Assembly: GCF_038025025.1 (NCBI RefSeq)
Contig: NW_027117340.1
Span: 372,001-436,000 of the forward strand
DNA length: 64,000 nt
Origin: Phyllosticta citribraziliensis
Taxonomy: Eukaryota
Direction of reading: 5' to 3'
How positions within the stretch are numbered: position 1 is the first letter of the stretch; every line of letters starts with the position of its first letter. The position numbers and the translations under genes are program-made. Positions 1,610 to 42,894 of the stretch are shown here, in pieces. The notes beneath the pieces were generated by a model. That model was not told the origin of the DNA and did not search any database. It saw only the letters and a program-made list of their open reading frames with translations.

Positions 1610-2084
1610 TCTTGTCAGAACCGAGACGAACCAGAGAAGCGAAGAGAAGAGGAGAGGGAGGGAAAGGGCAGAATAGCGGCTTGGAGGCGAAAACGATAGG
1701 AATCACATTCAGGGCCAGGCGCGAGTTGAGACTGGAGGTGGTCGTTTTGGGACACCGTCATCCAGCGATCCAATGTCAGCCGTTTGACGCGCTAACCTTA
1801 ACAGCACTAGCGCGCCAAGATTTCTTTCCGAACCACGCACAGTTGCCGAAAATGCGCCCGCAATTCCAAACTTCTCTTCTTCAGCACCGCGACAATCTGA
1901 GCAGCTGCCAGTCATCACGTTACCGAGAGGAACCCTCCGAGTCTTGACTGGAAATTTCACTTCATAACCGTACGTCAAAACCAGCATCCGCGCGCTTCAC
2001 CGAAGTCAGCCAGCAAGCCGCATCGCAGCGCTCGCTCTTCTTCTCTTCACTCGCTAACCACCAGCGCCTGCAGAATCGCCAAAA

Positions 2085-2497
2085 ATGTCTTACAACAAGG
2101 AGAAGGACTTTTCCGAGGGTCCCAAGATCCACAAGATCCGCATCACTCTGACCTCGCGCAAGGTCCAGTCGCTTGAGAAGGTCTGCCAGGAGCTCATCGA
2201 CCGCGCCAAGAACAAGGACCTGCGCATCAAGGGCCCCGTCCGCCTGCCCACCAAGAACCTCAAGGTCACCACCCGCAAGACGCCTTGCGGTGAGGGCTCC
2301 AAGACCTGGGACACGTACGAGATGCGCATCCACAAGCGCCTCATCGAGTAAGCACCGCCGCCGCCGTTTGTGAGACGTGGTTTGGAGACGATGAACTGAC
2401 ATGGGTTTGTAGCCTCAACGCCCCCACCGAGGTTGTCAAGCAGATCATCATCAACATCGAGGCCGGTGTTGAGGTTGAGGTCACCATCGCCGCTTAG
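2085..2497 (+). CDS. RPS20: 40S ribosomal protein S20 (uS10); exons 2085-2347, 2413-2497
   Basis: [11 protein letters not shown]...KGPVRLPTK...[25 protein letters not shown]; intron 2348-2412 (GTAAGC..CTGAC..TAG) restores the C-terminus [27 protein letters not shown]. Confidence 0.97.
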
Positions 2498-2710
2498 ATA
2501 TACCCACGGGCAGCGCGACGGAGAGACGCAGCAGCGGACAAAGACATTGGGCTCTTCATGTAGATTCTAATCCCATGAACCGTCCATTGGCGAACAGCGA
2601 GGTTGCAACGTGCGTTGTTGGTGTTTGAATGTGCCGTGCCGTCCAGCATGCATTCATACCACTCATCGCCCTTCAAGGTAAGCACACTTTTTTCTTTTCT
2701 TCTCCTGCAA

Positions 2711-2798
2711 TGGACACTCCCACAAGGATGAGCATTTTTACACTAGTTATCCCTGTCTGAAACACCCTGTTGAGAAACGTATTCACACTCTGAGTCCA
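2711..2798 (+). ncRNA. snR38: Box C/D snoRNA, snR38-like (predicted guide for 25S rRNA Gm2815, yeast numbering)
   Basis: Box C variant AGGATGA 2725-2731; guide CTAGTTATCCCTGT 2743-2756 complementary to the conserved LSU sequence ACAGGGAUAACUGG; D' CTGA 2757-2760; D CTGA 2790-2793; terminal stem TGGAC/GTCCA. The +5 rule selects the middle G of CAGGGA. It lies inside a putative intron 2678-2863 (GTAAGC..GCTGAC..AAG). Confidence 0.85.
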
Positions 2799-3844
2799 CC
2801 ATCAATTTGCAAAATTGCACAGCAAACAGAATTTGGAACATTCGCTGACTTGTTTGCAAAAAGGTCGAACGATAGACGTGCCCGGTTTCGCAGGTGATGC
2901 GCATACGTTCCAGCCCCACGACCCGCTTATCATGAATGAATTCGTGCCCATTGAAGTCATGCCGAAGTCAGAAAATTCACCGTGAATCTCCCACGCAGAG
3001 CCTCCAAATCCACTAGCGGAGACGTCTGAATCCAGGTAGGTAGCGTAGTGCGAACAACCCCAACCAACCAGATAGCAAACCAAACAAATAAAACAATTCC
3101 TCTTCTCCATGCCACCTCATCCCACGTCCAAACCTGAGTCCCGTAAATCTCCTCGCCGTGCGTCATGCCATCAGATATCCGTGTCCGCCATCACACAGCA
3201 TTTGCATCTCCTCACCAAACTTGCTACTGCCACATCTGTCTGTTTTTACCACACCACCCTTCTCTACTCGTTCCCCCACGTCCTCTCTCCCCCTCCCCTC
3301 CCTTCTCCCACGCAGCGAGACAACCAAGCTGCCGACTATAAGTCGCGGCAGTGGTGTGGTAGAGTACGACACCCCGCACTCTCGGCCCATCCGTCAATGG
3401 CACGAAAGCATGTATTTACATGTACGCAACACAAACTCTCGCTTGCAAACAACGCTCCTACTGGCGGGAGGAAGCTATGTATGTACAGTACAGGATCCAA
3501 AAGCGCAAACACGCGGGTGGGAAGGTGTGCCGTCATCTCTTGAGCATCTGCCCATTGCGTGAGGAACGGGGCTGAGGTGTCTTTTTGCTGATGGGGCTGG
3601 AGCTGTGAATGGCAGCGCCCAGACGCAACTGATGGCGGCAGCTCTTTTGGCGGTATGCGGTCGTGGACGCATGCTGTCTGGAGGAGCCATGATGCCCTCT
3701 CATCTTTCCGCAACTTGAGCAGTGGGTGCACACCATGCGCGCAATGGAAAGGAGGCGCGCGACGCGGCGGCAGGCAGAACGAGCACTCGACGAGGCGTGT
3801 CTATGTGAATTCGATAGCGGCAGCGAAAAGACCAGCCTCCCATC

Positions 3845-5155
3845 TCACTTGACCCTCAACTCCTCGCCAGACGCCAGGCGGAGTATACGCGTCGACGCCC
3901 TCTTCACCACACCATCAGCATTAACAGCAAGCCGCCTCCGCACCTCGTCCAGCCCGACCCTGCGCGTCCGCAGCAGACTGACGCTGACGCCACGATTCCG
4001 CTTCTCGCCGTCGTGCGCCGCGACCCACGCGCGCGCCATCAGCCGCCGCGCGATGTCCGCCCCGCCGCCCTCCGCCCCCGTCGAGATGTTGCCGCCCAGG
4101 AACCACGGGTTGTCGACCCGGTCGAAGCCGTGCAGCAGCAGCGTCAGGGGCAGCGCCGCGTGCCCGACCAGCTGCGCCGTCACGAACGGCTCCAGCGCCG
4201 CGTACGGCACGCCGTGCGGCGAGTAGAGGACGGACAGCGTCGGCTCGCGGTCGCGCGTGGGCGACGCGTCCGGGACGCCGGCGCCGGGCCCGGCGCTCGT
4301 GAGGGCGCTTGCGATGGAGCTGTGCGAGCGCGCGGAGCGGATCGTCGTTGGGTTGTCGCGAATTTGCTGCGGCGCCGATATGGGTTTGCTGGGCCGGTTG
4401 AGCTCGGAGAGCGTCTCCCGTGCGTCGCGGAGGCGCGCGGCGGCGATGGTCACGTCGATGGAGGCGGCGCGTGGTTTGGGAGAGGGTTTGGGGCCCGACG
4501 AGAGCGATGTGCTGGTGTTGGTGGACTGCGTTTGCAGGGAGCTGGTCTTGACGCTGGGGGAAGGTCGGGTGGGGAGGTTGATGAGAGTGTGGCGATTAGG
4601 GGTCAGGACGCTGGTTGGAGCGCGATAGGTGATGCCAATGGCTTTGTGGAGGCCGGTGATGTCGTTCTTTTGCGATATCAAACTGACGGTGACTTGGCCG
4701 GGAGAACCCAGTGGCGAGAACGAGGGCAGCTCAATGCGAAGAATGGTGGATTGGTCGGTTGCAGAGTAGAGTGGCAGAGACTGGACAACGTTTGGCTTGA
4801 AATGCTTCCATTTGCGTATTCTTGCGGCGGCCGCCGGCGCCGCGACAATGAGAGACTGCGTGTCTGGTGGGAGCTGTGTCAAGGTTTCTTTGTGGCAATG
4901 GTCCGGTTTATCTTGCGATACAATGACCAGGTCCGGCTCCGGCAGGTCAGCGAGGGAAGACACGCATGGCTGGGCTTGATGATGCGAGACTGAGAATGCA
5001 GAGGTCAGGATTTTGGCGGGACCCGTCAGCCATGGGTCTATCAGGACGGTAAAGGCGCCTGGGAACTGGGCGACGGATGGTGTGTCTGGAGCGATGGACG
5101 GAGCGAAGACGAGGAGAAACGAAGCGTCGCCGTTCAACGCCTTGACGACGAGCAT
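3845..5155 (-). CDS. Conserved fungal metallo-beta-lactamase-fold hypothetical protein
   Basis: Likely start MLVVKALNGDASFLLVF (ATG 5155) inside ORF 3845-5608; motifs VLIDPWL, DLVIVSQDKPDHCH, SVLYSPHG and WVAAHDGEK resemble MBL-fold motifs; intronless. Confidence 0.7.
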   Translation of the reverse strand: MLVVKALNGDASFLLVFAPSIAPDTPSVAQFPGAFTVLIDPWLTGPAKILTSAFSVSHHQAQPCVSSLADLPEPDLVIVSQDKPDHCHKETLTQLPPDTQSLIVAAPAAAARIRKWKHFKPNVVQSLPLYSATDQSTILRIELPSFSPLGSPGQVTVSLISQKNDITGLHKAIGITYRAPTSVLTPNRHTLINLPTRPSPSVKTSSLQTQSTNTSTSLSSGPKPSPKPRAASIDVTIAAARLRDARETLSELNRPSKPISAPQQIRDNPTTIRSARSHSSIASALTSAGPGAGVPDASPTRDREPTLSVLYSPHGVPYAALEPFVTAQLVGHAALPLTLLLHGFDRVDNPWFLGGNISTGAEGGGADIARRLMARAWVAAHDGEKRNRGVSVSLLRTRRVGLDEVRRRLAVNADGVVKRASTRILRLASGEELRVK

Positions 5156-24991: not shown

Positions 24992-25029
24992 CTGCTGCTG
25001 CTACTGCTGCTGCTACTACTGCTGCTGCT
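24992..25029. repeat. (CTG/CTA)n trinucleotide repeat; a poly(A) run lies nearby at ~24759-24779
   Basis: Direct reading in the low-complexity region between convergent MSS4 and NoxB. Confidence 0.85.
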
Positions 25030-42786: not shown

Positions 42787-42894
42787 GCGGGGTTGGTGTA
42801 GTTGGTCATCACGTCAGTCTAACAGAGCATTCCGGAGCAATTCGGACTGTCTGAAGAGCACTGAAGGTCGCGAGTTCAAGTCTCGCATCCCGTA
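42787..42894 (+). tRNA. tRNA-Val: tRNA-Val(AAC) with a 34-nt intron (42825-42858)
   Basis: Acceptor stem GCGGGGT/ATCCCGT+A; A box TGGTGTAGTTGG; anticodon arm TCAGT-CT-AAC-A^C-ACTGA; T arm GCGAG-TTCAAGT-CTCGC; T-runs immediately downstream (Pol III terminator). Confidence 0.93.

Follow-up and report, generated by a model that had tools for sequence, protein, structure and literature searches.

Organization of the locus

The stretch of DNA analysed here (the window) comprises 64,000 nucleotides from Phyllosticta citribraziliensis. At its start, a minus-strand CUE-domain gene is followed by RPS20 (uS10) on the plus strand and then by a convergent minus-strand gene of the metallo-beta-lactamase fold. 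For this last gene, every top named relative is a Phyllosticta (P. citribraziliensis, 99% over 48% of the query; P. citriasiana, 82% over its whole length), and Botryosphaeriaceae come next. The RPS20 stop codon TAG ends at 2497, and 180 nt further on lies the donor of a spliced intron in which a candidate box C/D snoRNA is situated. Table 1 summarizes the features of the locus. The donor, branch site and acceptor, together with their distance from the stop codon, had been placed in the initial annotation, and all these coordinates are right; the RPS20 5'-UTR intron and the second antisense element were absent from it.

Table 1. Features of the RPS20-snoRNA locus. Positions refer to the window. 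X1 and X2 are RNA runs; L003, L007 and L039 are orthologous loci of other fungi.
Feature	Position	Strand	Basis or remark
RPS20 non-coding first exon	1875-1969	+	X2 contig (record 8) begins at 1875; start not fixed
RPS20 5'-UTR intron, 104 nt, GT..AG	1970-2073	+	Joint 1969>2074 in 4/4 runs
RPS20 (uS10), first coding part	2085-2347	+	PF00338, E 7e-23; translation
RPS20 coding-region intron, 65 nt	2348-2412	+	Joint 2347>2413 in 4/4 runs
RPS20, last coding part, stop TAG 2495-2497	2413-2497	+	
RPS20 3' UTR / exon 5' of the snoRNA intron	2498-2677	+	Gapless in X2 record 13; X1 record 6 from 2520
Spliceosomal intron hosting the snoRNA, 186 nt	2678-2863	+	Donor GTAAGC, acceptor AAG; RNA contigs
Candidate box C/D snoRNA, snR38 orthologue	2721-2796	+	Rfam alignment; ends approximate
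Box C variant AGGATGA	2725-2731	+	Sequence; identical heptamer in L007, AAGATGA in L003 and L039
D' antisense element (predicted)	2743-2756	+	Pairs at the LSU G that is Gm2773 in N. crassa and Gm2815 in S. cerevisiae
Box D' CTGA	2757-2760	+	Sequence
Box C' CTGTTGA	2767-2773	+	TGTTGA invariant in 4/4 aligned
Second antisense element (putative), 11 Watson-Crick pairs to an LSU hairpin loop	2779-2789	+	Loop lies 84 nt 5' of the site paired by the D' element
Box D CTGA	2790-2793	+	70 nt 5' of the 3' splice site
Branch site GCTGAC	2844-2849	+	Only branch-type motif in 2498-3100
Downstream exon	2864-3300	+	X1 record 6, X2 record 13; contigs continue beyond 3300

Splicing and RNA contigs

Four of the 24 listed RNA runs (X1, X2, X3 and X20) were compared with the window. 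X1 and X2 carry the same organism label, belong to two studies and have no listed differences from the window, and one or the other may come from the project behind this assembly. Both are marked 'RNA?', and we read them as RNA because they contain spliced joints and empty intron bins. Three GT..AG joints are seen in these two runs, namely those of the RPS20 5'-UTR intron, the coding intron and the snoRNA intron, the last with sides of 155 and 255 letters. Among the six equivalent registers of this 186-nt joint, GT..AG is obtained on the plus strand only for 2678-2863 and on the minus strand for none, so that a minus-strand origin was rejected. The junction 2677/2864, named in the initial annotation as a check on splicing, is therefore present, in plus-strand orientation, among the RNA contigs from both studies.

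In X2, an unbranched contig (record 13) extends from 2413 up to the donor and continues from the acceptor to past 3300. In X1, one contig (record 6) starts at 2520, crosses the joint and extends over 3355 nt, long enough to include the convergent gene, and another (record 7) is unspliced and covers 2717-2878; its first base lies 4 nt ahead of the predicted 5' end of the snoRNA, and it extends over the acceptor. Such contigs carry no information on ends, strand or levels, and a contig over two transcription units is not equal to a single transcript; past 3300 they are probably merged with the convergent minus-strand gene. The uncovered parts (2678-2716 in X1, the intron in X2) are holes and have no bearing. 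From the downstream exon, the contigs extend toward the convergent beta-lactamase-fold gene (3000-3845), and the two 3' ends may overlap. X3 and X20, despite other organism labels, contain low-depth spliced contigs identical to the RPS20 of this organism (1800-3300), which are probably carry-over or a co-occurring fungus. On synteny these two runs offer no evidence; their content is traces of RNA from this organism together with the RPS20 coding parts of other fungi.

The snoRNA is situated about 45 nt from the donor and 70 nt from the acceptor of this spliced intron, and the usual snoRNA-acceptor distance for an intronic snoRNA is about 65-85 nt. At both of its junctions the intron has the direct repeat AAGGT (5 nt), which is also expected from the splice consensus, and a repeat scan returned only repeats of chance size. 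The first eight donor bases are identical in the RPS20 coding intron (2348-2355) and the snoRNA intron (2678-2685). This may be chance, or the 5' end of the new intron may derive from RPS20.

The snoRNA and its D' guide

Boxes D and D' are exact, box C' contains the invariant TGTTGA, and the box C variant keeps the GATGA core. The complete C/D'/D snoRNA noticed at the outset is thus borne out, with boxes C, D', C' and D located at 2725-2793. Its non-canonical box C is also present, but it is not peculiar to this locus, since a purine occupies the same position in 3 of the 3 orthologues found, and two of these score above the gathering level of snoR38. A 5-bp inverted repeat, seen by eye, flanks the snoRNA (2711-2715 and 2794-2798) and may form an external stem.

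In an Rfam search of 821 nt, the best match at 2721-2796 was Afu_328 with 48.5 bits (gathering score 70) and an E-value of 7.3e-6, or 5.7e-4 when the whole window was searched. The snoR38 family matched the same 76 nt with 27.3 bits (gathering score 45; E 0.049), and four C/D families in all were matched there by E-value, with Afu_328 leading. Among the three matches with E up to 0.5 in the whole window, the candidate was the sole snoRNA-like one, and at the gathering level the whole window gave one tRNA and no snoRNA. An Rfam hit to snR38, the check named at the outset, was therefore obtained by E-value for both families but under both gathering scores. The RNA is not a formal member of RF00213 or RF02403, and it is filed as an orthologue by target and alignment.

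When compared with the fungal LSU rRNA of locus L062 (the rRNA of another fungus, 3969 nt, without most of the SSU), the D' guide forms 12 Watson-Crick pairs, or 14 pairs with one G-U, at -22.9 kcal/mol. The +5 base of the target is G, and the pairing covers the antisense element of at least 10 nt by which we recognize an snR38 orthologue. The yeast numbering (Gm2815, U2729 and U2731) assumes a constant offset of 42 between the N. crassa table and the yeast sites 2724 and 2815. The 14-nt guide to the peptidyl-transferase-centre sequence of the LSU thus holds as originally proposed, with the equivalent of Gm2815 at +5. N. crassa CD23 appears in Liu et al. (PMC2780460; Table 1, Additional file 4) under snR38 as the guide for Gm2773, and its register is the same as that of the window guide. 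Together with the Afu_328 and snoR38 matches, this register agrees with the snR38 identity given by the initial annotation, and on this sequence evidence 2721-2796 is the snR38 of this fungus, the predicted guide for LSU Gm2815.

A scan with the complements of both guides returned 24 eukaryotic LSU fragments; having been chosen by pattern, they show both sites together on fungal LSU rRNA and not the breadth of conservation. The fragments (L053-L076) are mostly fungal-looking LSU rDNA stretches within bacterial representative genomes, an apparent contamination, and the LSU rDNA of L062 carries a group I intron.

A putative second antisense element 5' of box D

By the D+5 rule, the second antisense element would select the U equivalent to S. 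cerevisiae U2731. Shuffled snoRNA bodies match as well about 0.35% of the time, and 4 of the 507 CTGA in the window reach such a match, 2 of the 4 being this RNA. The element also has a 9-nt match to 5.8S rRNA, which is weaker than the LSU match. In L007, 10 nt of it are unchanged though adjoining non-box bases differ; the Afu_328 consensus, L003 and L039 are without it, unlike the window snR38.

The guide of N. crassa CD6, that is snR51 (Um2687, or Um2729 in yeast numbering), shares 10 nt with the window element and pairs with the same LSU hairpin. However, the register of the window element is shifted by 2 nt and points to U2731, two bases past the snR51 site, and for this reason the element was ruled out as a substitute for snR51. 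The same LSU hairpin is a place of lineage-specific guide switching according to the accessible parts of Canzler et al. (PMC5824354), in whose main text snR38 is unnamed. In the portion available of van Nues et al. (PMC3116282), snR38 is among the RNAs with extra pairing in most yeasts.

We tentatively treat the second element as a putative methylation guide, a reading to which we give slightly less than even credence. A helper pairing of the van Nues et al. kind is possible but clearly less probable, and that the element is neutral seems a little less probable still. A second guide, if true, predicts an unrecorded rRNA methylation; no report of Um2731 was found in the open-access literature.

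Hosts of snR38 in other fungi

A pattern search of metagenomes gave 52 matches, of which three are real snR38 orthologues (L003, L007 and L039) and 49 are chance matches in other DNA. All three fungal orthologues lie in the same coding-region intron of eEF1Bgamma, and none of the three is from the genus or family of the window fungus. A tblastn search with RPS20 was negative for all 52 pattern matches, and viral-contig scans for LSU, snoRNA and RPS20 returned nothing. As to synteny, a check named in the initial annotation, snR38 lies in the eEF1Bgamma intron in all three of these fungi, and no linkage to RPS20 was seen among the 52 matches.

The yeast snR38 lies in the TEF4 intron, as the initial annotation had it and as the available part of bioRxiv 10.1101/2022.02.02.478905 states. 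For S. pombe, the snR38 precursor primer agrees with the same eEF1Bgamma exon end in 16-18 of 24 positions, and its host is presumably eEF1Bgamma likewise. Since the three orthologues and the yeast TEF4 copy share this host, the position behind RPS20 appears to be derived. Judged from these alignments, snR38 has moved, or has been copied, from an ancestral eEF1Bgamma/TEF4 intron to behind RPS20. The eEF1Bgamma gene is absent from the 64-kb window; our guess, to which we give somewhat better than even odds, is that the old copy in its intron has been lost.

The intron sizes are alike (186 nt in the window versus 166, 184 and 187 nt in the TEF4-type hosts), as is the geometry, but the donor is GTAAGC in the window versus GTACGT in the introns of all three orthologues. 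L007, whose nearest named relatives are Coniosporium (79%) and lichen-forming fungi (about 80%), shares the box C heptamer and the D element with the window.

A decayed eEF1Bgamma duplicate as host was not accepted, there being no tblastx hit; in the tests for such a duplicate, one of 12 local alignments stood at 1/300 and one of eight fixed-register comparisons at 5/478. The fixed-register result is relevant to a further explanation, in which the host is a tiny protein-coding gene with a 56-codon ATG frame (2629-2985) that runs across the spliced joint in the phase of the eEF1Bgamma host intron. The last 13 exon bases agree with the eEF1Bgamma exon end in 21 of 39 comparisons, which 5 of 478 null donors equal, in a test picked after looking as one of eight. 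The 40-aa second part of the frame has no Pfam match and no homologue among 22-70-aa proteins, and the longer flanks are without similarity to eEF1Bgamma. We therefore consider such a coding host very improbable.

Source of the snoRNA

The initial annotation had offered two hosts, an extended RPS20 transcript and a tiny separate non-coding RNA. Both models still stand; the RPS20 model is ahead by virtue of the contig continuity with RPS20 (X2 record 13), although a contig cannot prove one molecule. We lean, by somewhat more than an even balance, towards a minor read-through isoform of RPS20 that is a likely substrate of nonsense-mediated decay (NMD). Most RPS20 transcripts would end at a poly(A) site upstream of the donor. 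A minority would read through and have the 186-nt intron spliced out, and the lariat would be debranched and trimmed to an snR38 of roughly 75 nt. The spliced long isoform would then be a by-product degraded by NMD that depends on the exon junction complex (EJC). In this scheme we infer the continuity with RPS20 at the single-molecule level, the location of the poly(A) site and the extent to which it is used, the lariat route, the decay and the methylation. EJC-dependent NMD acts on junctions placed over about 50 nt downstream of a stop codon, and the 2677/2864 junction follows the RPS20 stop at a distance of 180 nt. In N. crassa, 3'-UTR introns trigger EJC-dependent NMD (as cited in the available parts of PMC10578600 and PMC9801653), and the F. 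graminearum snR38 drops upon deletion of DBR1 (PMC9606315, in the part available).

The amount of the long form was bounded from the contigs. At RPS20 depth, the k-mer depth summed over the bridging contigs corresponds to 98 k-mers versus the 269 nt before the donor in X2, and 96 k-mers versus 158 nt in X1; these depths are contig means and not expression measures, and the X1 values seem to stop at 25000, so that the bound is weak. So small a k-mer mass suggests either that RPS20 mRNA mostly stops short of the donor or that the long form is unstable. We account for this by an end of most RPS20 mRNA before the donor, which is probable on this weak bound, and the main poly(A) site would fall within about 2580-2650. 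If every RPS20 mRNA instead carried the snoRNA intron constitutively in its 3' UTR, the contig continuity and the strong splice signals, with a donor octamer equal to that of the RPS20 coding intron, would be explained. However, the k-mer mass of the bridging contigs does not suffice for RPS20-level depth up to the donor, and a junction 180 nt past the stop would presumably expose an abundant mRNA to NMD, which makes a constitutive intron most unlikely.

A small separate non-coding host would consist of two exons, with its own start in the RPS20 3' UTR or terminator, and would overlap the RPS20 3' end and produce the same contig. Non-coding hosts are a common design for fungal C/D snoRNAs in the available passages of PMC2780460 and PMC4138321. 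In the latter, the start sites of fission-yeast snoRNA hosts are usually less than 200 bp from the snoRNA, which fits with a start inside 2520-2670 and counts against RPS20 as host. The sequence at 2648-2677 is C-rich and resembles a short leader, and the spliced form is minor relative to RPS20, a weak point in favour. On the other hand, the promoter would be placed inside a very highly transcribed exon, where interference may be expected, and the contigs of two studies are unbroken between the RPS20 exon and the donor. No copy of the GC-rich motif found upstream of RPS20 (1789), nor of the other promoter-like motifs tried, is present in 2498-2677, a weak argument given how few motifs were used. 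We consider a separate host rather unlikely.

The unspliced X1 contig (record 7), with its start close before the predicted snoRNA 5' end, would suit a post-cleavage route, in which Rat1/Xrn2 trims the RPS20 read-through product to the snoRNP, as in the mechanism described for mammalian SPA1 and SPA2 (PMC11028025, in the part available). By this route snR38 would arise largely without splicing, and the spliced form would be a side path. Nevertheless, this is one contig in one of two runs and contigs show no ends, while the intact, well-placed splice signals and the spliced joint in both runs favour the lariat route. Trimming after cleavage is accordingly given a low probability, well below that of a separate host.

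Returning to the read-through isoform of RPS20, the reading in full would be that the snR38 intron is situated past the main poly(A) site of RPS20, that the supply of the guide is set by terminator read-through, that the long isoform is lost by NMD and that a second guide methylates the U2731 equivalent. In this complete form we regard it as conceivable but doubtful.

Relation to known systems

The snR38 of S. cerevisiae (RF00213), CD23 of N. crassa, Afu_328 of A. fumigatus (RF02403) and SnR38 of F. graminearum have the same D' guide and target as the window snoRNA, and they too are intronic in a spliceosomal host, with similar intron size and position. The window snR38 differs from them in its host, which lies behind the RPS20 stop and is not eEF1Bgamma/TEF4, and in the purine at box C position 2.

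Relocated fungal snoRNA introns have been described with an 'excision-and-insertion' model (Luo et al. 2013, PMC3596301, in the part available). As in the window, a snoRNA intron is found there at a non-homologous site with a short direct repeat at the junction. Unlike the window snR38, however, those cases are cluster snoRNAs moving among non-coding hosts, and snR38 is not mentioned (0 occurrences) in PMC3596301. Constrained drift of snoRNAs (PMC3511168) and their mobility, in vertebrates only (PMC13736004), are treated in the available parts of two further papers.

Hosts in UTRs and non-coding RNAs are common in fungi, as far as the passages available of PMC4138321 and PMC2780460 go. The S. 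pombe and N. crassa examples resemble the window in having an intron outside the reading frame as carrier and a link to ribosomal-protein expression, but no C/D snoRNA intron behind the stop codon of a ribosomal-protein gene appears in those passages. The two 3'-UTR cases of N. crassa in the accessible part of PMC2780460 are H/ACA RNAs and are not listed there as intronic. Introns in the 3' UTR occur in about 3% of the genes of Podospora, and PMC8476143 describes snoRNA introns that are conserved in ribosome genes.

Human snoRNA hosts with NMD-sensitive isoforms (PMC4233243) and the SPA RNAs (PMC11028025) are, in the available sections of both papers, systems in which snoRNA output is uncoupled from protein output, by means of a spliced isoform that is discarded or of transcription past a poly(A) site, as proposed here. 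Those systems are mammalian, whereas the version in the window is predicted and would act through 3'-end choice and not through alternative splicing of a coding region. No report of snR38 behind RPS20, or of a Phyllosticta snoRNA, was found in the open-access literature. The RNA is a member of a known family with a known kind of mobility, and its host position is unusual.

Among ascomycetes, snR38 and its eEF1Bgamma intron seem to form one of the most ancient pairings of a snoRNA with a host. Where a lineage has broken this pairing, nature itself tests whether the position of a snoRNA is constrained by expression level alone and not by the identity of its host. If RPS20 read-through is the source, the amount of an rRNA modification would be governed by the choice of poly(A) site in a gene for a ribosomal protein. 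Such coupling is known in mammals (NMD isoforms and SPA RNAs), and we did not find it described in the open literature for the 3' end of a fungal ribosomal-protein gene. With a separate non-coding RNA as host, the move would be an ordinary relocation.

Additional observations

In L007 and L039, eEF1Bgamma is arranged head-to-head with a ribosomal protein gene of the S9/S16 family, which is probably mitochondrial. Elsewhere in the window, a tRNA gene with an anticodon-loop intron is located at 42787-42894. It is matched by Rfam, reads by eye as Val(AAC) and was missed by ARAGORN in bacterial mode.
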